Source of the DNA: a virus
Direction: 5' to 3' (one strand)
DNA length: 14,166 bases
UHGV virus genome: UHGV-0065581
Of the stretch, positions 1,523 to 14,166 are shown piece after piece; the first letter of the stretch is position 1; the number at the start of each line of letters is the position of its first letter. A program made the translations under genes and the position numbers. The notes beneath the pieces are model-generated. The model was not told where the DNA came from. It saw nothing but the letters and a program-made list of their open reading frames with translations, and did not search any database.

Positions 1523-1816
1523 TTATTGTGAGCAATACACACGCGCTTCCAGTGGAGTATAAATGCCTAAAGTAATAAAACCGAGAAATCCATTTACGAA
1601 TGTTTGCTGGGTTTCTGTTTTAACAACATTTTCTGCGCCGCCACAAATTTTGGCTGCATCAACAGTTTTCTCCTGTCCAATTCCCGAAACGAAGAAATGA
1701 TGGGTGATGGTTTCCTTTGGTGTTACTGCTGTCGGTTTGTTTCCAACAGTAAACGTCTGTTGAGCACATCCTGTAATAAGCATTGCCAGAGCGGCAGAAA
1801 ACAACATTTTTTTCAT
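1523..1816 (-). CDS. bor: Bor outer-membrane lipoprotein (lambda Bor / Iss family, serum-resistance associated)
   Basis: Minus-strand ORF. From the ATG at 1816-1814 it encodes 97 aa: MKKMLFSAALAMLITGCAQQTFTVGNKPTAVTPKETITHHFFVSGIGQEKTVDAAKICGGAENVVKTETQQTFVNGFLGFITLGIYTPLEARVYCSQ. Lipobox LITGC. Near-identical to lambda Bor from memory. The ORF track extends the frame 16 codons further upstream, to 1864. Confidence 0.9.
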   Translation of the reverse strand: MKKMLFSAALAMLITGCAQQTFTVGNKPTAVTPKETITHHFFVSGIGQEKTVDAAKICGGAENVVKTETQQTFVNGFLGFITLGIYTPLEARVYCSQ

Positions 1817-1996
1817 CTTATTATCCTGCATTGTTAAAAACGGCAGAATCCTATGTGACAACAATTAAACGATAGTTAAATGGATTGATGAAAATTAAAA
1901 CTATATAGGTGGATGCTCAGCCTATCGGAGGTAGTCAGGATTTGAATGTCAGTCTGTTGTCGGCATTCTGGCAATGCAATTTGGATAAAGCGGGGA

Positions 1997-2119: not shown

Positions 2120-2200
2120 GTTGAACCTCCTTAATTGATGTTATTCGAGTGATGAAGGCATTCTGTCCTTCTATAGTGTCCAGTAAATCAAACAGGAAAC

Positions 2201-2220
2201 TTGTCCAACGTGTTGGACAA
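2201..2220. promoter_or_regulatory. Perfect palindrome TTGTCCAAC-gt-GTTGGACAA; candidate operator or protein-binding site
   Basis: 9-bp inverted repeat arms separated by 2 bp, read directly from the sequence. It sits in non-coding DNA about 120 bp upstream of the HNH start and about 80 bp upstream (minus-strand sense) of the small ORF at 2119. Confidence 0.4.
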
Positions 2221-2341
2221 GCCTCTCCATTAGTGAGTTGTATTGATCACAACTCTACAAAGAATTCATTACTGGGTAGATGAAAATAGTTTCACTATGA
2301 ATGGAGGAGGCTATGTCGGTGGCTTCTTCATTGGAGTACAT

Positions 2342-2692
2342 ATGCCCCCACGAATCCCACGCGCCTGCCGTAAGCGTGGATGTGCAGGTACAACCACAGA
2401 CAGTTCTGGTTACTGCGATAAACATCGTGGCGAAGGATGGGTACAGCATCAACGCGGACTGAGCCGCCACCAGCGTGGCTATGGCTCGAAATGGGATGCC
2501 ATACGTGCGCGCATACTGAAGCGTGATAATCATCTGTGTCAGAACTGCCTGCGCAATGGGAGAGCCGTTGAAGCCAGAACTGTGGACCACATCATTCCGA
2601 AAGCTCATGGTGGCACGGATGCAGACAGTAACCTGCAGAGTCTGTGCTGGCCCTGTCATAAAGCAAAAACAGCGCGCGAACGCATCAATTGA
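2342..2692 (+). CDS. HNH endonuclease, terminase-associated (HK97 gp74-like)
   Basis: From the ATG at 2342 (GGAG 5 nt upstream) it reads MPPRIPRACRKRGCAGTTTDSSGYCDKHRGEGW...DHIIPKAHGGTDADSNLQSLCWPCHKAKT, carrying a Cys-rich zinc-binding N-terminus and the H-N-H motif. It lies directly upstream of the small terminase. The ORF track starts at 2243, but that N-terminal extension has no good RBS and does not look like protein. Confidence 0.85.
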   Translation: MPPRIPRACRKRGCAGTTTDSSGYCDKHRGEGWVQHQRGLSRHQRGYGSKWDAIRARILKRDNHLCQNCLRNGRAVEARTVDHIIPKAHGGTDADSNLQSLCWPCHKAKTARERIN

Positions 2693-2839
2693 TAACAGTT
2701 CCCATCTGTAGGGGAGGGGCAGGTCAAATCTCTGCAACCCTGGCTGCTCAGTACCGCCGCCTGACCCTTCCTCACATCGCCGCAGGTTCGAAAACTTTTT
2801 TTGGAAATGTGAACAAACGATTGATAGGTAAGACCGATT

Positions 2840-3322: not shown

Positions 3323-5079
3323 TGGCAAAAGTGGCTGACGGGATCCGCTACGCCGAACGTGTTGTTGCAGGAGAAATTGTTGCTGGCGAATTTGTCCGCC
3401 TGGCCTGCCAGCGTTTTCTTGATGATCTGAAGTACGGCGAAAAGCGGGGGATTTATTTCAGTGAACCCCGTGCGCAGCACATCCTGAATTTCTACAAATT
3501 TGTGCCTCATGTAAAAGGGGCACTGGCAGGCCAGCCCATTGAGTTGATGGACTGGCATGTATTTATCCTCATTAATATTTTTGGTTTTGTCATTCCGCTG
3601 GTCAATGAAGAGACCGGGGAAGTTGTCATGCGCAGCGATGGCAGCGGACGTCCGGTGATGGTGCGCCGGTTCCGGACGGCGTACAACGAAGTCGCCCGTA
3701 AAAACGCAAAATCAACTCTGTCATCGGGTATCGGCCTGTATATGACGGGGGCAGATGGTGAAGGCGGAGCTGAGGTGTATTCAGCCGCAACCACGCGTGA
3801 CCAGGCCAGAATCGTGTTTGAAGACGCCAAAAATATGGTCAGAAAAGCCAGGTCGACACTCGGGCGGTTGTTTGATTTCAACAAGCTGGCGATTTACCAG
3901 GAGCAGAGCGCATCAAAATTTGAACCGCTTTCTTCGGATGCAAACAACCTGGATGGTCTGAACATCCACTGCGCCATTATTGATGAGCTGCATGCACATA
4001 AAACCCGTGACGTGTGGGACGTTCTGGAAACGGCAACCGGTGCCCGTCTGCAGTCCCTTTTATTTGGTATCACCACGGCAGGGTTTAACAAGGAAGGGAT
4101 TTGTTACGAGCAGCGTGATTACGCCATCAAGGTATTGCGTGGCTATAACAGCGACGTGGAGGGCGCTGTAAAAGACGACTCTTACTTTGCGATCATTTAC
4201 ACGCTTGATGAGGGAGATGATCCGTTTGATGAAACGGTCTGGCAGAAAGCGAATCCTGGCCTGGGCATCTGTAAACGCTGGGATGATCTGCGTCGTCTGG
4301 CGAAAAAAGCGAAAGAACAGGTCTCTGCGCGGGTGAATTTTTTTACCAAACACATGAATGTGTGGGTAACAGCAGAGTCTGCCTGGATGGACATGATTAA
4401 GTGGGAGAAGTGCGAATACATTGCCCCACGACATGAGCTGAAAACGTATCCCATGTGGGTCGGCGTTGACCTTGCTCATAAGATTGATATCTGTGCGGCG
4501 GCAAAACTCTGGCGAACGGATAACGGGCATGTTCATGCCGATTTTAAATTCTGGCTTCCGGAAGGACGGCTGGAACGATGCTCGCGGCAGCAGGCAGAAC
4601 TTTACCGGAAGTGGGCGGAGATGGATAAGCTGATTCTGACGGATGGTGATGTTATCGATCATGCTCAGATAAAAAGTGACTTACTGGAATGGATTGGTGG
4701 TGAAAACCTCAGGGAACTGGGATTTGACCCGTGGAGCGCAATGCAGTTCAGCCTGGCACTGGCTGAAGAAGGGATACCGCTGGTGGAGGTTCCGCAGACG
4801 GTCCGCAATCTGTCAGAGGCCATGAAGGAAACGGAATCACTGGTCTATGCCGGGCGTTTCCATCACAGCAATCATCCGGTCATGAACTGGATGATGTCTA
4901 ACGTTACGGTAAAACCGGACAAAAACGACAATATCTTCCCGAATAAATCCACGCTGGAAGCCAAAATCGACGGCCCTGTTGCGATGTTTACAGCAATGAG
5001 CCGGATGCTGGTCAATGGTGGTGAACCGGAGCTGGATCTGTCTGAACATCTGGTCAGCGTGGGCATCCGCTCGCTTTAA
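3322..5079 (+). CDS. terL: Terminase large subunit (ATPase and nuclease)
   Basis: 585-aa ORF immediately after terS, with a nucleotide-binding region near residue 100-130 (ARKNAKST) and an acidic nuclease-like C-terminal half. Size and position match the HK97-type large terminase. Confidence 0.9.
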
Positions 5080-5090
5080 CCGAGGTCATT

Positions 5091-5291
5091 ATGTTTCTGA
5101 TAATTCTCGCGCCACTGGTGGGCGTGCTGGGTGCGCTTTTGCTGGCGTATGGTGCCCGGCGGGTTTTGTTGTTGCCGGGGTGCTGTGCCTGTTCTGGTCG
5201 TGGCTGGTGGCGCGATATCTCGACCGTACACAGCCGTCTGTCGGCGGAGGTAAATAGTGTTCTTTTCGGGATTATTTCAACGAAAAAGTGA
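5091..5291 (+). CDS. Hypothetical small hydrophobic protein between terL and portal; reading frame and extent uncertain
   Basis: ATG at 5091 with GAGG 5 nt upstream begins [24 protein letters not shown] (a TM-like helix). The -1 frame over 5150-5257 also encodes a TM-like segment ([32 protein letters not shown]) whose TAG stop overlaps the portal GTG start. See findings. Confidence 0.3.
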
Positions 5292-6498
5292 CGCGCCGGT
5301 GACCACGCCAGCAGAGCTGGCGGATGCCATCGGGTTGTCTTACGACACCTATACCGGAAAGCAGATCAGCAGTCAGCGGGCCATGCGACTGACGGCGGTT
5401 TTTTCCTGCGTCAGAGTGCTGGCAGAGTCGGTCGGGATGTTGCCCTGCAATCTGTATCACCTGAACGGCAGCCTGAAACAGAGGGCCACCGGCGAACGTC
5501 TGCATAAGCTGATCTCCACGCATCCCAATGGCTATATGACGCCGCAGGAGTTCTGGGAGCTGGTGGTCACCTGTCTGTGCCTGAGGGGAAACTTTTACGC
5601 CTACAAAGTGAAAGCATTTGGCGAAGTGGCTGAACTGCTGCCCGTCGATCCCGGTTGTGTAGTACCGAAGCTTAACAGTCGCTGGGAACCGGTCTATCAG
5701 GTCACATTCCCGGACGGTTCCACGGATGTACTGAGCCAGGAAGATATCTGGCATGTGCGCACGCTGACGCTGGACGGTCTGGTGGGACTGAATCCCGTCG
5801 CCTATGCCCGCGAGGCAATATCGCTGGCAGCAGCGACCGAAGAGCACGGGGCCAGACTGTTCAGCAATGGTGCGGTGACGTCCGGTGTGTTGCGTACAGA
5901 ACAGACGCTGTCGGATCAGGCTTATGAGCGCCTGAAGAAAGATTTTGAAGAGCGTCACACCGGGCTTGGCAATGCTCACCGCCCGATGATCCTTGAGATG
6001 GGGCTGGACTGGAAGTCGATGGCGCTGAACGCCGAGGACAGCCAGTTCCTGGAAACCCGCAAGTTTCAGCTTGAAGAAATCTGTCGTCTGTTCCGGGTGC
6101 CGTTGCACATGGTGCAGAACACCGATCGCGCCACCTTCAACAATATCGAAGAGCTGGGGCTGGGATTTATCAACTATTCACTGGTGCCGTATCTGACCCG
6201 CATCGAACAGCGGATCAACACCGGACTGGTACGAAAAAGTAAGCAGGGCGTTTATTACGCCAAATTTAACGCCGGGGCGTTACTGCGCGGGGATATGAAG
6301 TCCCGTTTTGAAGCCTACGCCACCGGGATCAACTGGGGAATTTACTCTCCCAATGACTGCCGCGACCTGGAAGATATGAATCCGCGTCCCGGTGGGGATG
6401 TCTATCTCACACCGATGAACATGACCACGAAACCCTCCGATGGCAGTAAAGCCGGTAAGCAGAAGGATAACGCCAATGCAGACGAAACAACGTCTTGA
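5257..6498 (+). CDS. Portal protein, HK97 family
   Basis: 413-aa ORF from GTG at 5257 with GGAGG 6 nt upstream. Position after the large terminase, size and acidic C-terminus fit a portal protein. Confidence 0.88.
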   Translation: MFFSGLFQRKSDAPVTTPAELADAIGLSYDTYTGKQISSQRAMRLTAVFSCVRVLAESVGMLPCNLYHLNGSLKQRATGERLHKLISTHPNGYMTPQEFWELVVTCLCLRGNFYAYKVKAFGEVAELLPVDPGCVVPKLNSRWEPVYQVTFPDGSTDVLSQEDIWHVRTLTLDGLVGLNPVAYAREAISLAAATEEHGARLFSNGAVTSGVLRTEQTLSDQAYERLKKDFEERHTGLGNAHRPMILEMGLDWKSMALNAEDSQFLETRKFQLEEICRLFRVPLHMVQNTDRATFNNIEELGLGFINYSLVPYLTRIEQRINTGLVRKSKQGVYYAKFNAGALLRGDMKSRFEAYATGINWGIYSPNDCRDLEDMNPRPGGDVYLTPMNMTTKPSDGSKAGKQKDNANADETTS

Positions 6499-7126
6499 TG
6501 TACCGCTGAGTCTGAAATCTGTCAGTGACTCCGGTGAGTTTGAAGGGTATGGCTCCGTCTTTGGTGTAAAGGACAGCCACGATGATGTGGTGATGTCCGG
6601 GGCATTTGCTGCTTCCCTGCGGGCGTGGAGTGACAGAAAAGCGTTACCTGCGCTGCTCTGGCAGCACCGCATGGATGAACCCATCGGTGTTTACACCGAA
6701 ATGAAGGAAGACGATGTCGGGCTTTACGTCAGGGGACGGTTGCTTATTGATGATGATCCCCTCGCAAAACGCGCACATGCACACATGAAGGCCGGTTCGT
6801 TAACCGGCCTTTCTATTGGGTACGTCCTGAAAGACTGGGAATACGACCGGAGCAAAGAAGCCTTTCTGCTGAAAGAAATCGACCTCTGGGAAGTCAGCCT
6901 GGTGACGTTCCCGTCTAACGACGAGGCGCGGATCAGCGACGTCAAGAACGCACTGGCCCGCGGGGAAATCCCCGAACAGAAAAAAATCGAAAGAGTCCTG
7001 CGTGATGTCGGACTCTCCCGTACCCAGGCCAAAGCATTCATGGCCGGGGGCTATGGCGCACTGTCCCTGCGCGACGCTGAGGATGTGGGCTCTGCACTGA
7101 ATGCACTGAAAAATCTGAACTTCTAA
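6476..7126 (+). CDS. Prohead maturation protease, HK97 family
   Basis: The ORF track gives 6440-7126. The ATG at 6476 (AAGGA upstream) gives MQTKQRLDVPLSLKSVSDSGEFEGYGSVFGVKDSHDDVV..., a typical prohead-protease N-terminus. It overlaps the portal 3' end and precedes the capsid gene, which is the conserved HK97 gene order. Confidence 0.82.
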   Translation: MQTKQRLDVPLSLKSVSDSGEFEGYGSVFGVKDSHDDVVMSGAFAASLRAWSDRKALPALLWQHRMDEPIGVYTEMKEDDVGLYVRGRLLIDDDPLAKRAHAHMKAGSLTGLSIGYVLKDWEYDRSKEAFLLKEIDLWEVSLVTFPSNDEARISDVKNALARGEIPEQKKIERVLRDVGLSRTQAKAFMAGGYGALSLRDAEDVGSALNALKNLNF

Positions 7127-7140
7127 TCAGGAGAAATACG

Positions 7141-8346
7141 ATGACGGTTGATATTAAAGATGTCGAACAGGTCGCGCAGGAGCTGCAGCAGAAGTTTGAC
7201 GACTTCAAAGCAAAGAACGACAAGCGCGTGGATGCGATTGAGCAGGAAAAAGGCAAACTTGCCGGGCAGGTGGAAACCCTGAACGGGAAACTCAGCGAGC
7301 TGGAAAACCTCAAAAGCGATCTTGAAAAAGAGCTGCTTGAGCTGAAACGTCCGGCAGGTGGTGCGCAAAATAAACTGGCCACCGAGCATAAAGAAGCGTT
7401 TGTGGGCTTCCTGCGTAAAGGCCGTGAAGATGGTCTGCGCGATCTGGAGCGCAAGGCATTACAGGTGGGCACCGATGAAGACGGCGGCTATGCCGTGCCG
7501 GAAGCACTGGATCGCAACATTCTCACCCTGCTGAAAGATGAAGTGGTGATGCGCCAGGAAGCCACGGTGATCAGCGTTGGTGGTTCCGACTACAAAAAAC
7601 TGGTGAATCTGGGCGGCACGGCTTCCGGATGGGTTGGCGAGACTGAAGCGCGCTCCCAGACTGCCACCTCAAAACTGGGCCTGATTGAACCGTTCATGGG
7701 GGAAATCTACGGTAACCCGCAGGCCACCCAGAAAATGCTGGATGATGCCTTTTTCAACGTGGAAGCATGGATCAACAGCGAGCTGGCAACCGAATTTGCC
7801 GAACAGGAAGAAATTGCCTTTACCACCGGCGATGGTACCAAGAAGCCGAAAGGGTTCCTGGCGTATGAGTCCACGGATGAAACAGACAAGGTCCGGGCGT
7901 TCGGCAAACTTCAGCATATTGTATCCGGCGAAGCGACGGCGGTGACCGCAGATGCCATTATCAAACTGATTTACACGCTGCGTAAGGCACACCGCACTGG
8001 CGCGAAGTTCATGATGAACAACAACAGTCTGTTTGCCATCCGTCTGCTGAAAGACAGTGAGGGTAACTATCTGTGGCGTCCGGGGCTGGAGCTGGGGCAG
8101 CCGTCCTCTCTGGCGGGTTACGCTATCGCTGAAAACGAACAGATGCCGGATATTGCCGCTGATGCGAAAGCCATTGCATTTGGTAACTTCAAACGAGGTT
8201 ACACCATCGTTGACCGTATCGGTACCCGCATTCTGCGTGACCCGTACACCAATAAACCGTTTGTCGGTTTTTATACCACCAAGCGCACCGGCGGCATGCT
8301 GGTCGATTCGCAGGCCATCAAACTGCTGAAGATTGCAGCGGCGTAA
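7141..8346 (+). CDS. Major capsid protein, HK97 fold, with N-terminal coiled-coil delta (scaffolding) domain
   Basis: 401-aa ORF with AGGAG upstream. The first ~100 aa are highly charged coiled coil (delta domain), followed by a capsid-like body. It follows the protease as in HK97. Confidence 0.9.
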   Translation: MTVDIKDVEQVAQELQQKFDDFKAKNDKRVDAIEQEKGKLAGQVETLNGKLSELENLKSDLEKELLELKRPAGGAQNKLATEHKEAFVGFLRKGREDGLRDLERKALQVGTDEDGGYAVPEALDRNILTLLKDEVVMRQEATVISVGGSDYKKLVNLGGTASGWVGETEARSQTATSKLGLIEPFMGEIYGNPQATQKMLDDAFFNVEAWINSELATEFAEQEEIAFTTGDGTKKPKGFLAYESTDETDKVRAFGKLQHIVSGEATAVTADAIIKLIYTLRKAHRTGAKFMMNNNSLFAIRLLKDSEGNYLWRPGLELGQPSSLAGYAIAENEQMPDIAADAKAIAFGNFKRGYTIVDRIGTRILRDPYTNKPFVGFYTTKRTGGMLVDSQAIKLLKIAAA

Positions 8347-8353
8347 TCATTCA

Positions 8354-8381
8354 GGGGGCGCAGAAGTGCGCCCCCTGTTCT
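8354..8381 (+). terminator. Stem-loop GGGGGCGCA-gaag-TGCGCCCCC followed by a weak T-rich stretch, directly after the capsid gene
   Basis: Perfect 9-bp GC-rich stem with a 4-nt loop, starting 8 nt after the capsid stop codon; followed by TGTTCT. Confidence 0.55.
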
Positions 8382-8397
8382 GACAGGTGAAAGAATC

Positions 8398-8586
8398 ATG
8401 ATCCTGAAACAAGATCTGAAATGGTCACCGGACGGTATGCGTGTTGAGATTATTCGGGCCGGTGAGTATGAAGATAAAGAATTACCCGAACGGGTACGAG
8501 AAATTGCCACTGCAGCTGGGATTGTCTCTGATAAGAGAACACCTGTTGCGCGGGGGGCTGATAAGTCTAAAAAACAGCATTCATAG
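8398..8586 (+). CDS. Hypothetical protein (62 aa) between capsid and head-tail connector genes
   Basis: ATG with AGGTGA upstream; MILKQDLKWSPDGMRVEIIRAGEYEDKELPERVREIATAAGIVSDKRTPVARGADKSKKQHS. It fills the gap between neighbouring genes. No family recognised. Confidence 0.45.
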   Translation: MILKQDLKWSPDGMRVEIIRAGEYEDKELPERVREIATAAGIVSDKRTPVARGADKSKKQHS

Positions 8587-8597
8587 AGGTTGCCCAA

Positions 8598-8903
8598 ATG
8601 ATGCCCACTCTGGAAGAGCTTCGTGTTCAGTGCCGGATTGATGATGACAATGAACAGGAGAATTCTCTTCTTATGATGTATCTGGCTGCTGCCAGGGAAG
8701 AGGCTGAAAAGTTTTTAAACCGGACGCTTTACGATGAAACTGTTTCTGAGCAGGATACGACCGGGCTTGTAATAACACCTCTGATAAAACTGCGTCTTAT
8801 GCAACTGGTTGGCTACTGGTACGAGAACAGGGAAATGCAGGATGCAGTGCCTGATTTTTTCTATACCGGACTGCGGATGTATCGATTTCATCCCGGAACA
8901 TAG
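8598..8903 (+). CDS. Head-tail connector protein (gp6-like)
   Basis: 101 aa starting MMPTLEELRVQCRIDDDNEQENSLL..., the characteristic N-terminus of gp6-like head-tail connector proteins; located after the capsid gene. Confidence 0.75.
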   Translation: MMPTLEELRVQCRIDDDNEQENSLLMMYLAAAREEAEKFLNRTLYDETVSEQDTTGLVITPLIKLRLMQLVGYWYENREMQDAVPDFFYTGLRMYRFHPGT

Positions 8904-10057: not shown

Positions 10058-10084
10058 ACCCGCCGCTGGCGGGTTTTTTATTTT
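10058..10084 (+). terminator. Intrinsic-terminator-like hairpin ACCCGCC-gct-GGCGGGT followed by TTTTTTATTTT, upstream of the major tail gene
   Basis: GC-rich 6-7 bp stem with a short loop and a long T-tract on the + strand, located between the tail-terminator stop (10035-10037) and the major tail start (10097). Confidence 0.55.
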
Positions 10085-10096
10085 CAGGAGACGAGT

Positions 10097-10801
10097 ATGT
10101 CCTCTAATTTTGAGCGTTCGCAACTGACGAAAATTATGATTTCGTCTGCACCGGTAACAGCAGAAACCCTGGATTCTGCCAGCTATCTTGGCCTGAGCTG
10201 TACAATCAAAGAGGTGCAGTTTACCGCAGGACAAAAGCAGGATATTGATGTCACCACGCTGTGTTCTGTTGAGCAGGAAAATATTAACGGCCTTGGTGCT
10301 GCTTCAGAGATTTCCATGTCAGGCAACTTTTACCTCAATGCTGCCCAGAACGCGTTGCGCAGTGCCTATGACAATGACACCACGTATGGCTTTAAAGTTA
10401 TTTTTCCGTCAGGCAACGGATTTACCTTTATGGCAGAGGTGCGTCAGCATACCTGGTCTGTAGGAACTAATGGTGTTGTGGCTGCAACGTTTTCCCTGCG
10501 CCTGAAAGGTAAACCTGTGCTGACGACAGAGCCGCTGAAAGTGAAGGTCGATTTAAAAAGCACGCTGCGGGTTGCTTCCGGATCGAAACTTGAAATGGCG
10601 GTTGAGGCTGCGGGTGGTGTGCCGCCTTATTCTTATGTCTGGAAGAAAGGTAGTTCTCCTGTTTCCGGACAGACGGCGGCAACATTCAGTAAGGCATCGG
10701 CAGTATCCGGTGATGCGGGTGCATATACCTGCGAGATTTCTGATTCAGCAAGCCCGGTTAACAAAGTGACCTCTACTTCCTGCACTGTTACCGTCAGTTA
10801 A
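10097..10801 (+). CDS. Major tail (tube) protein with C-terminal Ig-like domain
   Basis: ATG at 10097 with AGGAGA upstream; MSSNFERSQLTKIMISSAPVTAETL... The C-terminal ~80 aa (GGVPPYSYVWKKGSSPVSGQTAATFSKASAVSGDAGAYTCEISDSASPVNKVTSTSCTVTVS) has an Ig-like (Big_2-type) pattern, as in the lambda gpV C-terminus. The ORF track starts at 10046, inside the terminator hairpin. Confidence 0.85.
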   Translation: MSSNFERSQLTKIMISSAPVTAETLDSASYLGLSCTIKEVQFTAGQKQDIDVTTLCSVEQENINGLGAASEISMSGNFYLNAAQNALRSAYDNDTTYGFKVIFPSGNGFTFMAEVRQHTWSVGTNGVVAATFSLRLKGKPVLTTEPLKVKVDLKSTLRVASGSKLEMAVEAAGGVPPYSYVWKKGSSPVSGQTAATFSKASAVSGDAGAYTCEISDSASPVNKVTSTSCTVTVS

Positions 10802-11187
10802 TGAGGATAGATGTGATGACTAAAAATATCCGTAATCTGGCACTGGCAACGATGTCGGGGTTTCGTCATAAAACTGTTGATGTGCCTGAATGGGAAGGGG
10901 CAACGGTTGTATTACGGGAACCTTCTGCAGAAGCCTGGTTGCGCTGGCAGGAGATCGTTAAAGCAAAAGATGATGAGACACCGTTATCCGTTGCGGAGCG
11001 CGCCCGCCGAAATCTGGAAGCGGATGTTGAACTGTTCATCGATGTTCTGTGTGATACCGGACTGCAACCTGTATTTTCAGAGGATGATCGTGAACAGGTG
11101 ATTGCCGTGTATGGCCCGGTGCATGCGCGGCTTCTTCGGCAGTCTCTGGAACTGATCAGTGATGCCGGCGAGGTTAAAAAAAAGTAG
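10801..11187 (+). CDS. Tail assembly chaperone (gpG-like), zero-frame product
   Basis: ORF directly after the major tail gene (TAATG overlap), ending EVKKK* at a slippery A-run. Alternative start ATG at 10816. Position and acidic character fit the G chaperone. Confidence 0.75.
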   Translation: MRIDVMTKNIRNLALATMSGFRHKTVDVPEWEGATVVLREPSAEAWLRWQEIVKAKDDETPLSVAERARRNLEADVELFIDVLCDTGLQPVFSEDDREQVIAVYGPVHARLLRQSLELISDAGEVKKK

Positions 11188-11501
11188 CGCTTCCGGGGAT
11201 GCGTTTTCTGATGATGCTGGCGCTCAGGATGGGGCGCACATTGTCAGAGTTACGCCGGGAAATGTCCGCATCAGAAATCATGATGTGGGCAGAATTTGAC
11301 AGGTTCAGCCCGCTGGGGGACGAACGGGCTGATATCCGGGCTGCCCAGATTGTTTCAGCTGTTTACGGTGCGCAGGGGGTGGGAGAAGGAGCAGACAGAA
11401 GGCGTATCAGATCCATTTGCTGGACTGGAAAACGCGCTTTTAATAGTGTCTCAGTGAGTCAACATAACCGCTTCGGCGGTTTTTTTTCGTCCGGAGAATG
11501 A
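10801..11501 (+). CDS. Tail assembly chaperone GT-like fusion, made by programmed -1 ribosomal frameshift at A AAA AAG (11178-11184)
   Basis: The -1 frame carries TAA at 11175-11177, immediately before the slippery heptamer, and is then open to TGA at 11499-11501 (…KKVALPGMRFLMMLALRMGRTLSELRREMSASEIMMWAEFDRFSP...). This is the conserved G/GT arrangement between the major tail and tape measure genes. Confidence 0.7.
11178..11184 (+). promoter_or_regulatory. -1 programmed frameshift slippery heptamer A AAA AAG
   Basis: Canonical X XXY YYZ motif (same heptamer as E. coli dnaX) at the last codons of the G-like ORF, within an 8-A run at 11176-11183. Confidence 0.7.
11466..11487 (+). terminator. 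Terminator-like hairpin AACCGC-ttcg-GCGGTT with a T8 tract, inside the 3' end of the GT extension and 11 nt before the tape measure start
   Basis: 6-bp stem with a UUCG-type tetraloop and a run of eight T, read directly from the sequence. It overlaps codons NRFGGFFSS of the -1 frame. Confidence 0.5.
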
Positions 11502-14166
11502 GTGTGGCGACATTACGTGAACTGATTATTAAAATCTCGGCAAATTCCCGGTCATTCCAGTCAGAGATCTCCCGGGCTTCGCGTATGGGGCAGGATTACT
11601 ACCGTACCATGCAGAACGGAGGCCGGCAGTCCGCTGCTGCATCCCGTGAAATGCGGCGTGCACTGGCAGAAGTGACGGATCAGATAAATACAGCTAAATC
11701 TTCGGCACTGAATATGGCGGGGGCATTTGCCGGAGCTTTTGCTACCGGTCATCTTATTTCTCTCGCCGATGAGTGGAATTCAGTAAATGCCCGTCTGAAG
11801 CAGGCCTCACAGTCCAGTGATGATTTTCAGTCATCACAGCGTGAATTAATGGCGATCAGCCAGAGAACGGGGACGGCGTTTTCTGATAACGCCAGCCTTT
11901 TTGCCCGCTCTGCAGCTTCCATGCGGGAGTATGGCTACAGTTCTGAGGAGGTACTGAAAGTCACCGAGGCGATCTCCACGGGCCTGAAATTATCCGGTGC
12001 CAGTACAGCAGAAGCCAGTTCGGTGATCACGCAGTTCAGTCAGGCACTGGCGCAGGGAGTGCTGCGCGGTGAAGAGTTTAACTCGGTGAATGAGAACGGC
12101 GATCGTGTTATTCGTGCGCTGGCTGCGGGAATGGGTGTTGCCCGTAAGGATCTGAAGGCCATGGCGGATAACGGAAAACTGACCGCCGATAAGGTTGTTC
12201 CTGCACTGATTAGTCAGCTTGGGGCGTTGCGTGATGAATATGCAGCAATGCCTGATACTGTTTCATCCTCTGCAACCAAAGTTGAAAACGCCTTTATGGC
12301 CTGGGTTGGTGGTGCGAACGAGGCAAGCGGAGTGACAAAGACACTCACCGGGGTGTTGAATGGTGTTGCAGACAATATTGATACCGTGGCTGCTGCAGCT
12401 GGCGCACTGGTTGCCGTCGGGGTAGCCCGATATTTTGGCAATATGGCGTCGTCTGCTGGATCTGCAACTGCCGGATTAATTACTGCAGCCAGAAACGAAG
12501 TGGCTCTTGCTGAAGTGCAACTTCGGGGGACACAGATAGCAACCGCCAGGGCGCGTGCGGCGGTTTATCGTGCGCAACAGGCGGTTGTTGCTGCTCGCGG
12601 TACCGAAAGGCAGGCCGCAGCAGAAGCGAAGCTGACAGCTGCCCAGGCGTCACTTACCCGTAATATTGCGGCCAGAACAGCGGCACAGACAACGCTGAAT
12701 ACTGTCACGTCAGTGGGGAGTCGTCTGTTAAGTGGTGCGCTGGGGGTGGTTGGTGGTGTGCCGGGACTCGTCATGCTGGGGGCGACGGCCTGGTACACGA
12801 TGTATCAGAATCAGGAGCAGGCCAGAGAATCTGCACGACAGTATGCCGCAACAATCGACGAAATTCGCCAGAAAACGTCGGCAATGTCGCTTCCTGAAGC
12901 GTCAGATAATGAGGAAAAGACGCGGCAGGCACTTGATGAACAAAACAGGTTAATTGACGAGCAGAAAAGTAAGATTAAATCCTTACAGGAAAAAATTGCT
13001 GGCTATCAGTATGTGCTGGCAAACCCGGGCTGGACAACCGATAACGGTTTTATGATTAACCACATGACGTCGGTAAAAACTGTCACAGAAGGGCTTGCAG
13101 AAGCAACAAATCAACTGGCAGTTGAACAGTCCCGTCTCACACAAATGCAGGGCAAAGCGCAATCCATTCAGGATGTGCTTGCCGGGCTGGAGGAGCGACG
13201 GGTGGCGTTGATCCGTCAACAGGCAGCGGAACAAAACAAAGCGTATCAGTCCCTGTTGATCATGAATGGGCAGCATACCGAGTTTAATCGCCTTCTCGGG
13301 CTCGGTAATGAATTACTTCAGCAGCGACAGGGGCTGGTGAATGTACCGTTACGGCTACCACAGGCAACCCTGGATGATAAACAGCAGACCGCACTGAATA
13401 ACAGCGAGCGCGAACTGGCTCTGTCCCGCCTGAAGGGGGAAGCTCGTGAGCGTGCCCGCCTGGGTTATGCTGCGGATGATCTCGGCTTTGTGGGAGAGGC
13501 GTATCAGACAGCCAGACAGAATTATATCAATAACTCACTGGATGCCTGGCGAAATAATCAGGCAAATAAACCCAAAGCGCATAAAAAGACCGAAGCGGAA
13601 AAAACAGAAGATATTTATAAACGGCTGATTAAACAGCAAAAAGAACAAATAGCACTGGCAGGGCAGAATACTGAACTGGCTAAGATGAAATATCAGGTCA
13701 GTCAGGGCGAATTATCAACCCTGTCAGAAGCGCAGAAAAAAACGCTTTTGCAGAATGCAGCACTCATTGACCAGAAAAAGATTCGTGAGCAGCTTGCTGC
13801 GTATGAGAGCAGTCTGGCGGACAGTAATGCCAGTGCCCGGGCATCTGACGAAGCGCAGTTGCTGGGATATGGTGAAGGCTCACGGATGCGTGAACGACTC
13901 CAGGAAATGTGGAGTATCCGGCAGGCGTTTGAGCAGAAAAATAACGAGCTGCTGAGACAGTATCAGGCCGGAGAAATTGAAGAAGCCCTGTGGAAACAGG
14001 AGAAAGAACTGAATAAAAAATATCTGGAAGAGCGTCTCAGCGATCAGCAGGATTATTATGCAAAGGCTGATGCTTTACGCAGTAACTGGAATGCCGGACT
14101 CCAGGAGGGACTGACGAACTGGGCAGACAGTGCCACCGATTATGCTTCGCAGGCGGCAGATGCTGT
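11498..14166 (+). CDS. Tail tape measure protein, N-terminal ~889 codons; continues beyond the window
   Basis: ATG at 11498 (GGAGA upstream, ATGA overlap with the GT stop) opens a frame that reads MSVALRELIIKISANSRSFQSEISRASRMGQDYYRTMQNGG... The ORF track lists no stop-terminated ORF in this frame to the window end, consistent with an unbroken frame. Ala/Gln-rich helical composition and position after G/GT are typical of tape measure proteins. Confidence 0.85.
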   Translation, partial: MSVATLRELIIKISANSRSFQSEISRASRMGQDYYRTMQNGGRQSAAASREMRRALAEVTDQINTAKSSALNMAGAFAGAFATGHLISLADEWNSVNARLKQASQSSDDFQSSQRELMAISQRTGTAFSDNASLFARSAASMREYGYSSEEVLKVTEAISTGLKLSGASTAEASSVITQFSQALAQGVLRGEEFNSVNENGDRVIRALAAGMGVARKDLKAMADNGKLTADKVVPALISQLGALRDEYAAMPDTVSSSATKVENAFMAWVGGANEASGVTKTLTGVLNGVADNIDTVAAAAGALVAVGVARYFGNMASSAGSATAGLITAARNEVALAEVQLRGTQIATARARAAVYRAQQAVVAARGTERQAAAEAKLTAAQASLTRNIAARTAAQTTLNTVTSVGSRLLSGALGVVGGVPGLVMLGATAWYTMYQNQEQARESARQYAATIDEIRQKTSAMSLPEASDNEEKTRQALDEQNRLIDEQKSKIKSLQEKIAGYQYVLANPGWTTDNGFMINHMTSVKTVTEGLAEATNQLAVEQSRLTQMQGKAQSIQDVLAGLEERRVALIRQQAAEQNKAYQSLLIMNGQHTEFNRLLGLGNELLQQRQGLVNVPLRLPQATLDDKQQTALNNSERELALSRLKGEARERARLGYAADDLGFVGEAYQTARQNYINNSLDAWRNNQANKPKAHKKTEAEKTEDIYKRLIKQQKEQIALAGQNTELAKMKYQVSQGELSTLSEAQKKTLLQNAALIDQKKIREQLAAYESSLADSNASARASDEAQLLGYGEGSRMRERLQEMWSIRQAFEQKNNELLRQYQAGEIEEALWKQEKELNKKYLEERLSDQQDYYAKADALRSNWNAGLQEGLTNWADSATDYASQAADA

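Follow-up and report, generated by a model that had tools for sequence, protein, structure and literature searches.

The stretch of viral DNA analyzed here (UHGV-0065581; 14,166 nucleotides, referred to as the window) has its genes arranged as in a lambdoid late operon of HK97 type: lysis, terminase, portal, protease, capsid, connectors, major tail, G, T and tape measure. The features located around the boundary that separates the tail assembly chaperone from the tape measure gene are collected in Table 1, together with the cargo genes found at the same boundary in related loci. The slippery heptamer was found just upstream of the stop codon of G (TAG, 11185-11187), and the T frame, corresponding to Phage_tail_T (PF06223), started at 11184 and differed from the G frame by -1. 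Two features of the lambda G/GT type were found here: a slippery heptamer close to where G ends, and an overlapping -1 frame with a T domain.

The N-terminus of the tape measure protein, MATLRELIIKISANS (MATLREL...), was common to HK544 and HK97-type relatives, and the start codon was GTG in the window and ATG in several relatives. A preliminary description of this DNA, made from the letters alone, had placed a hairpin 11 nt before a tape measure ATG; an ATG does exist at 11498, 10 nt past the T-run, but the start shared with the relatives is the GTG at 11504. The GC content of the spacer in front of this start was 48% (read from the identical spacer of locus L001). No promoter-like site was found by scanning the + strand between position 5104 and the hairpin.

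Table 1. Features at the chaperone/tape measure boundary of the window, and cargo genes found at the equivalent place in related loci.
Feature	Position or size	Strand	Basis
Second intrinsic-terminator-like site, CCCGCC-GCT-GGCGGG + T6	10059-10079	+	Scans; HK97 annotation at homologous place
Tail assembly chaperone G gene	10816-11187	+	Annotation of relatives; Pfam PF06222 (Phage_TAC_1), E = 2e-58
Slippery heptamer A AAA AAG for -1 G-to-GT frameshift	11178-11184	+	Sequence reading
Junction of 32-bp deletion (GTCAAAGTGCCACTGAATGATGCGCTTCTTCA in relatives)	11378-11379	+	Alignment with vB_EcoS-689R5 and Evi
Aberrant out-of-frame tail of T' ORF (VGEGADRRR...NRFGGFFSSGE, then stop)	11379-11501	+	Frame reading
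Native T-frame stop TGA of intact relatives	11455-11457	+	T CDS end of 689R5 and Evi maps here
Ancestral intergenic spacer, 46 nt, without cargo ORF	11458-11503	+	Native T stop to tape measure start
Terminator hairpin AACCGC-UUCG-GCGGUU, C(UUCG)G tetraloop	11466-11481	+	Sequence reading, terminator scan, folding
T8 run (U-tract)	11480-11487	+	First two T pair within the stem, six T beyond
GGAG Shine-Dalgarno of tape measure gene	11493-11496	+	Sequence reading; folding
Tape measure gene, start GTG, runs off window end	11504-14166	+	N-terminus homology
Cargo: YebO-like protein, HK97 gp15 type	61-62 aa		PF13974
Cargo: membrane protein with zinc ribbon	110-114 aa		PF13248
Cargo: lipoproteins, at least five different	113-137 aa
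Cargo: secreted protein	113 aa
Cargo: TPR protein	296 aa
Cargo: two-gene cassette

The stem of the hairpin consisted of six Watson-Crick pairs, all perfect and four of them G-C, and the hairpin by itself reached -8.0 kcal/mol when folded as RNA. The U-tract followed the stem directly and without interruption, on the same strand as all structural genes, and the complete unit of hairpin and T-run ended 5 nt before the tape measure Shine-Dalgarno. Since the U-tract lies upstream of the GGAG, a transcript ending there would lack the ribosome-binding site of the tape measure gene. On the complementary strand there was no T-run after the stem, only AA being present upstream of the core, which indicates that the terminator is unidirectional in the window.

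Chance occurrence was evaluated by a strict scan (stem perfectly Watson-Crick paired over 6 bp or more, four or more of the pairs being G-C; loop of 3-8 nt; run of at least six T, at least four of them beyond the stem). Exactly two sites were obtained in the window, both on the + strand, namely the hairpin at 11466-11487 and the site at 10059-10079. Dinucleotide-preserving shuffles of the window gave a mean of 0.007 strict sites, with 7 of 1000 containing at least one and 0 of 1000 containing two. A looser terminator scan of the window displayed no overall enrichment (19 sites vs. 14.2 ± 3.6 expected from shuffles), and no Rfam family was found anywhere in the window at gathering thresholds. 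The site at 10059-10079 was preceded by the tail completion gene and followed by the major tail gene, which starts at ATG 10097. This second terminator stands alone before the major tail gene, in the window as in HK97, an instance of cargo-less terminators being kept in such late operons.

The hairpin and T-run at 11466-11487 are a real terminator signal and not a chance hairpin. Its assignment as a terminator-type hairpin is well supported by its anatomy, the chance control and the comparison with relatives presented below, termination itself being predicted. The initial identification of an intrinsic-terminator-like hairpin with a UUCG loop and a T8 run was thus borne out by these three lines of evidence.

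The 32-bp deletion and the apparent coding overlap

As compared with the related phages vB_EcoS-689R5 and Evi, the window lacked 32 bp within T; the missing segment was flanked by the near-repeats CAGGGGG and CAGTGGG. In an alignment of 5.3 kb with PhiR49_2, this 32-bp gap was the sole gap block. Since 32 bp is not a whole number of codons, the T frame is shifted from this point onward. The TGA at 11455-11457 was out of frame in the window, and the stretch 11380-11457, read in the other frame, translated as WEKEQTEGVSDPFAGLENALLIVSQ followed by the stop, which is the genuine T C-terminus. The aberrant tail of the T' ORF crossed the hairpin and ended at TGA 11499-11501.

The deletion junction was not found in any other sequence, the window being alone among 96 junction sequences compared, and searches for it gave 0 matches in IMG/VR and 0 in 5,426 complete E. 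coli genomes. In the search of complete E. coli genomes, every match listed across the deletion point contained the extra 32 bp, and in a second search the same occurred in 20 of the 20 matches listed. As far as these comparisons reach, the deletion is private to the window among the related sequences checked.

The T product was affected as well. The Pfam Phage_tail_T match of the T' of the window covered profile positions 1-38 of 73 and ended at residue 60, as compared to positions 1-69 of 73 in the intact T of a relative, and this truncation of the profile match is due to the 32-bp deletion. The T domain expected of an intact G/GT chaperone was thus incomplete in the window and, judging from the profile match, the deletion destroys its C-terminal half. 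Considering what the T domain does when lambda-type tails are assembled, GT is probably inactivated and the prophage tail-defective.

The deletion also accounts for the coding overlap of the hairpin. The preliminary description had presented the hairpin as embedded in coding sequence, and an ORF in the T frame (11199-11501) does span it; this overlap arises because the private frameshifting deletion extends the upstream T frame. In 689R5 and Evi the native T stop was separated from the hairpin by 8 nt, and since T ends before the hairpin in the intact relatives, the hairpin was ancestrally intergenic.

With this arrangement restored, the structural and positional properties of intrinsic terminators were present: a G+C-rich hairpin with a short loop, an uninterrupted U-tract and, in the ancestral arrangement, a location between genes, 8 nt past the native T stop. 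Canonical E. coli intrinsic terminators share with the window the G+C-rich stem, the stable tetraloop, the U-tract and, considering the intact relatives, the position after a stop codon. The hairpin of the window differs from them in that its stem is among the shorter and weaker ones, and in that it lies inside a long operon expected to be antiterminated, so that it should be conditionally silent.

The chaperone/tape measure junction in related prophages

Loci were selected by their related tape measure N-termini; 80 came from IMG/VR and 9 from GTDB species representatives, further ones being taken from phage and E. coli records. In these loci we measured how far the tape measure start lies from the T stop. 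A cargo-less spacer of 45-47 nt was found in 65 related loci, not counting the window. In the remaining loci the spacers were 277-982 nt long, AT-rich (30-40% GC) and occupied by unrelated cargo ORFs, with at least eight unrelated genes represented at this junction. Altogether, 29 distinct spacers were compared, coming from E. coli, Klebsiella, Leclercia, Enterobacter, Pseudescherichia, Superficieibacter, and Pantoea. A G+C-rich hairpin with a T-run ended 28 of the 29; the exception was a cargo-less Pantoea locus (L090) with a spacer of 28 nt, in which the same hairpin was present with a TGCG loop and the T-run had decayed to TATTT.

Twelve stem-loop sequences besides that of the window were recognized at the junction, with complementarity kept in all of them. 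Across these hairpins the stem ended 15-23 nt before the tape measure start; folding energies elsewhere ranged from -8.9 to -19.3 kcal/mol, the hairpin of the window (-8.0 kcal/mol) being the weakest. The sequence past the T-run was of two backbone types (CGTCCGGAGAA... and ATKGGTGAAAAT...), each of them occurring with several different hairpin-cargo pairings. As both backbones occur with varied hairpins and cargo, the hairpin belongs to the cargo side and travels with the cargo. RNAalifold predicted no pairs on a MAFFT alignment of 15 junctions, because the hairpins share no homology and do not align in register; stems were instead tabulated from the loop outward. Neither a moron nor a hairpin or terminator was found at the T/tape measure junction of HK022, which presented a 19-nt spacer and a different tail module. 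Taken together, the spacers compared indicated that HK97-type tail modules have a moron slot at the chaperone/tape measure junction.

The closest likeness to the hairpin of the window was found in loci carrying the zinc-ribbon cargo, where the core AACCGC-TTCG-GCGGTT and the T-run were identical to those of the window. These were L004 and six similar loci from E. coli (L035 among them) and L088, L089, and L091 from Leclercia and Enterobacter; in the E. coli ones, the sequence from the T-run to the tape measure start was also identical to the window. Unlike the window, the zinc-ribbon loci had about 400 nt of AT-rich cargo upstream of the hairpin (38-39% GC, encoding 110-114 aa, PF13248). In addition, an A-run lengthened their stem to 7-9 bp (-8.9 to -10.7 kcal/mol), as compared with only AA in the window, and through this A-run their terminator appears to be bidirectional. 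At the left junction, the difference between the window and the cargo-bearing loci began within T, approximately 35 nt before its 3' end, and a difference reaching so far into T points to a mosaic replacement rather than a clean deletion. A consensus scan revealed no sigma-70 promoter before the zinc-ribbon cargo in L004; a promoter belonging to the cargo itself is assumed here from the moron concept.

A terminator at this place has also been annotated in well-known phages. The GenBank record of HK97 (NC_002167) lists putative terminators on either side of the major tail gene and another behind gene 15 ("moron product"), the last of them immediately preceding the tape measure gene, and in the HK544 record (JQ086374) a "rho-independent terminator" is annotated immediately upstream of the tape measure gene. 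The position matches that of the window, as in each case the terminator is the final element ahead of the ribosome-binding site of the tape measure gene, on the same strand. The stem of HK97 and HK544 ends 17-22 nt before the start and, as in the window, a G+C-rich stem of (A)nCCGC type with a short loop is followed by a T-run; the tape measure N-terminus of HK544 is 92% identical to that of the window. The differences concern the stem-loop itself (GACCCGC-TATCAA-GCGGGTT in HK97 and HK544 vs. AACCGC-TTCG-GCGGTT), which is shorter and weaker in the window (-8.0 vs. -12.4 kcal/mol), and the cargo, as the terminator of HK97 and HK544 trails a 62-aa YebO-like gene and that of the window trails none. 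Moreover, the spacer of the window, with only 46 nt, leaves no room for a promoter. According to these records, a terminator at this position has been annotated since the HK97 genome, and the window is another sequence variant of it, without cargo.

The first element to be termed a moron was HK97 gene 15, located between the tail chaperone and tape measure genes, and morons come equipped with a promoter and a terminator of their own, through which they are expressed while the prophage is repressed (PMC3594210, which summarizes the moron concept of Juhala et al. 2000). In P22-like phages, a variable "ant moron" slot, sometimes empty, precedes the tailspike gene in a conserved late operon and may influence read-through into the structural gene that follows (PMC2629481). 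The P22-like slot resembles the junction of the window in being a single hot spot, with differing cargo or empty, within a conserved late operon; it belongs to another phage group and differs in junction and cargo, no sequence relationship being claimed. The moron treated in PMC10884400 lies at another junction and was left aside. We have used the Juhala/Hendrix definition of a moron, that is, an extra gene with its own promoter, its own terminator and deviant composition. The window had no extra gene and no promoter of its own, and it had the 3' terminator; deviant composition was seen for the cargo of the relatives (30-40% GC), the spacer of the window being only 46 nt long. As judged from its sequence, the window holds the terminator component of a moron only and is not itself a moron.

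A probable orphan terminator and the alternative readings

The exact hairpin was present in 75 of the 96 junction sequences compared, with T-runs of T7 in 22, T8 in 50 and T9 in 3 of them. A separate, flank-anchored scan of IMG/VR, which overlaps the set of 96, gave an identical hairpin in 115 of 115 cargo-less copies (T7 in 32, T8 in 78, and T9 in 5). No stem variation of the kind that would test for selection was found in these 115 copies; what varied was the length of the T-run and 5 nt upstream. The copies were closely related, with flanks 96-100% identical, so that the invariance of the hairpin carries no statistical weight and, with so little divergence, constraint is not separable from recent ancestry. 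The invariance of the hairpin in well over 100 cargo-less copies could come from selection for its own function, and not from a recent ancestor shared by the copies.

In our opinion, the hairpin is probably the rho-independent terminator of the chaperone/tape measure moron slot, left as an orphan with the cargo absent and read through with the help of Q in lytic growth. Under this explanation, the hairpin and U-tract of the nascent RNA would release ordinary RNA polymerase at about 11487-11490. As release would occur upstream of the tape measure Shine-Dalgarno, transcription from stray or moron promoters in the lysogen would be kept out of the tail genes; during lytic growth, the late-operon polymerase modified by the phage Q antiterminator would pass the terminator. 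In lambda, Q-modified polymerase reads through intrinsic terminators. The close relative PhiR49_2 carries cI, cro, and the Q antiterminator gene upstream of lysis and the late operon; the window starts downstream of the cI/cro/Q region, and Q itself lies outside it. With the late operon of the relative located downstream of Q, strong attenuation in lytic growth would not be expected. Given that there is no cargo gene and no promoter upstream, little specific is left for the terminator of the window to stop. Most simply, the orphan would be the scar of a cargo loss or exchange; regarding the direction of evolution, cargo may have been lost leaving its terminator behind, or a backbone terminator may have predated the cargo.

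The preliminary description had proposed that the hairpin attenuates transcription into the long tail genes, marks the 3' end of a major-tail/chaperone transcript or influences tape measure initiation. We regard a selected attenuator or mRNA 3'-end stabilizer as possible although unlikely: some polymerases would stop at 11487 even with Q, or the hairpin would shield processed upstream RNA from 3' exonucleases, and in both cases the mRNA of tube and chaperone would exceed that of tape measure and tail tip. Tape measure and tail-tip proteins are needed in few copies per virion, tube and chaperone being abundant, and the site lies exactly at the boundary between the high-copy (tube, G) and low-copy (tape measure, tip) genes. 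The tube/G/GT segment is enclosed by this site and the terminator at 10059-10079, the putative terminators of HK97 likewise flank its major tail gene without cargo, and the hairpin remained intact and invariant in the cargo-less copies. Against attenuation, the statistical argument from invariance fails for the reason given above, and other cargo-less junctions do without a working terminator, HK022 having no hairpin and the Pantoea locus a decayed T-run. In addition, the hairpins differ by cargo and not by backbone, and from lambda biology the Q-modified polymerase would be expected to pass intrinsic terminators.

We consider it improbable that the hairpin, instead of being a scar, belongs to the phage backbone as a selected dual throttle, stopping non-antiterminated polymerase and refolding over the Shine-Dalgarno in read-through mRNA, and serves in addition as a fixed right-hand docking boundary for moron exchange. 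If true, the two actions of the throttle would keep the amounts of tape measure and tail-tip protein low.

A translational throttle, in which the read-through mRNA would refold by pairing 11471-11479 with 11487-11496 and thereby hide the tape measure Shine-Dalgarno and keep its translation low, is likewise improbable. The alternative 9-bp helix was the minimum-energy fold in a 71-nt context, and in a 160-nt context pair probabilities were about 0.91-0.95, the GGAG being able to pair with 11471-11474; the Leclercia and Enterobacter loci could still form the pairing via a C-to-U change that gives a G-U pair (sequences read by eye). The two folds were, however, nearly isoenergetic, so that the context chosen decides between them, and the 71-nt region was no more stable than its shuffles (z = -0.31). 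The cargo-bearing loci with A/U-extended stems favor the terminator hairpin, no consistent equivalent occurred among the other hairpin types, and a UUCG loop beside a GGAG motif makes the complementarity trivial. Viewed as a terminator/antiterminator attenuator with mutually exclusive folds, the window type has a competing helix over the Shine-Dalgarno, and no sensor or leader peptide was evident.

A chance inverted repeat beside a T-run in a real coding region, without terminator competence, is very improbable: the lack of enrichment in the loose scan and the ORF covering the hairpin in the window as given would be compatible with it, but the strict scan (two sites against 0.007 expected), the twelve other stem-loop sequences at the equivalent position in relatives and the origin of the covering ORF as a frameshift artefact all speak against it.

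The first reading of this DNA is therefore partly supported by the comparisons made: a predicted terminator is indeed there, its context would be a moron slot, and roles in attenuation or translation appear less likely. The value of the finding is mainly corrective, as what looked like a terminator inside a gene is a normal intergenic terminator over which a private deletion has extended a reading frame. If the orphan terminator were selected, it would bear on structural-gene dosage in antiterminated late operons, although nothing demands selection. In E. coli prophages, terminators that lack cargo at this place are common: of 5,426 complete E. coli genomes, 876 gave a match to the junction region. 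In the context of the survey, the site belongs to a busy moron slot with at least eight unrelated cargo types; many of these are envelope proteins, which could be candidates for superinfection exclusion.

Deletion in the T frame and homopolymer variation

The T frame, the -1 frame of the G/GT tail chaperone, carried a frameshifting deletion of 32 bp at 11378|11379, flanked by the near-repeats CAGGGGG and CAGTGGG; the deletion ends the match to the Pfam T domain at position 38 of the 73-position profile. The deletion was private to the window, and its junction found no match either in IMG/VR or in 5,426 complete E. coli genomes. Tail assembly is probably defective in this prophage.

Of all A or T homopolymers in the window, the two longest were the T-run of the terminator-like hairpin preceding the tape measure gene (T8, 11480-11487) and the A8 at the frameshift site (11176-11183). 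The length of the former was polymorphic among otherwise identical copies, relatives displaying T7 (n = 22), T8 (n = 50), or T9 (n = 3), and a second, overlapping sample from a flank-anchored IMG/VR scan 32, 78, and 5 copies, respectively; such variation is typical of homopolymer slippage.

Terminator-like site and mosaic segments upstream

A second strict terminator-like site, with perfect stem, short loop and T-run, was located ahead of the major tail gene (see table), at a place homologous to that of a putative terminator annotated in the HK97 record. The ATG at 10097 is the homologue of the HK97 major tail start and is provided with an AGGAG Shine-Dalgarno sequence. In the records of close relatives the major tail CDS begins at the equivalent of 10046, thus spanning the hairpin, and this start has probably been mis-called.

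The head module is mosaic: blastn of the portal-protease-capsid segment (5021-8901) against PhiR49_2, a close relative with an intact T, gave no match, and the segments on either side of it, covering lysis, terminase, and tail, were 93-96% identical to this phage. Two minus-strand ORFs and an adjoining hairpin look like a reverse-oriented insert within the late operon; PhiR49_2 has two hypothetical minus-strand genes annotated at the corresponding place.

Hairpins and minus-strand ORFs in the window
Feature	Position	Strand	Location
CCCGCC-GCT-GGCGGG + T6	10059-10079	+	Between tail completion gene stop (10037) and ATG 10097
13-bp hairpin	2196-2225	-	Adjoins minus-strand ORFs, Rz-small terminase interval
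ORF	1523-1864	-	Between Rz and small terminase gene
ORF	2255-2737	-	Between Rz and small terminase gene

Cargo at the T|tape-measure junction

Among the related loci, a 287-bp contig (L095, NZ_JAGEMM010000121.1, coverage 0.9) labeled Microvirga antarctica contained a fragment with 82% identity to this enterobacterial tape measure gene, and probably represents contamination of that assembly.

The T|tape-measure junction is a moron hot spot (loci L003-L005 and L078-L094; position equivalent to 11458-11465). At least eight unrelated cargo types, all of them AT-rich, were found there, including a YebO/gp15-like protein, a zinc-ribbon membrane protein, several lipoproteins, a 113-aa secreted protein, a TPR protein, and a two-gene cassette. 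To our knowledge, gp15, the HK97 moron product, is the only one with a tested function. Since most of the types are envelope proteins, these are plausible candidates for superinfection exclusion.
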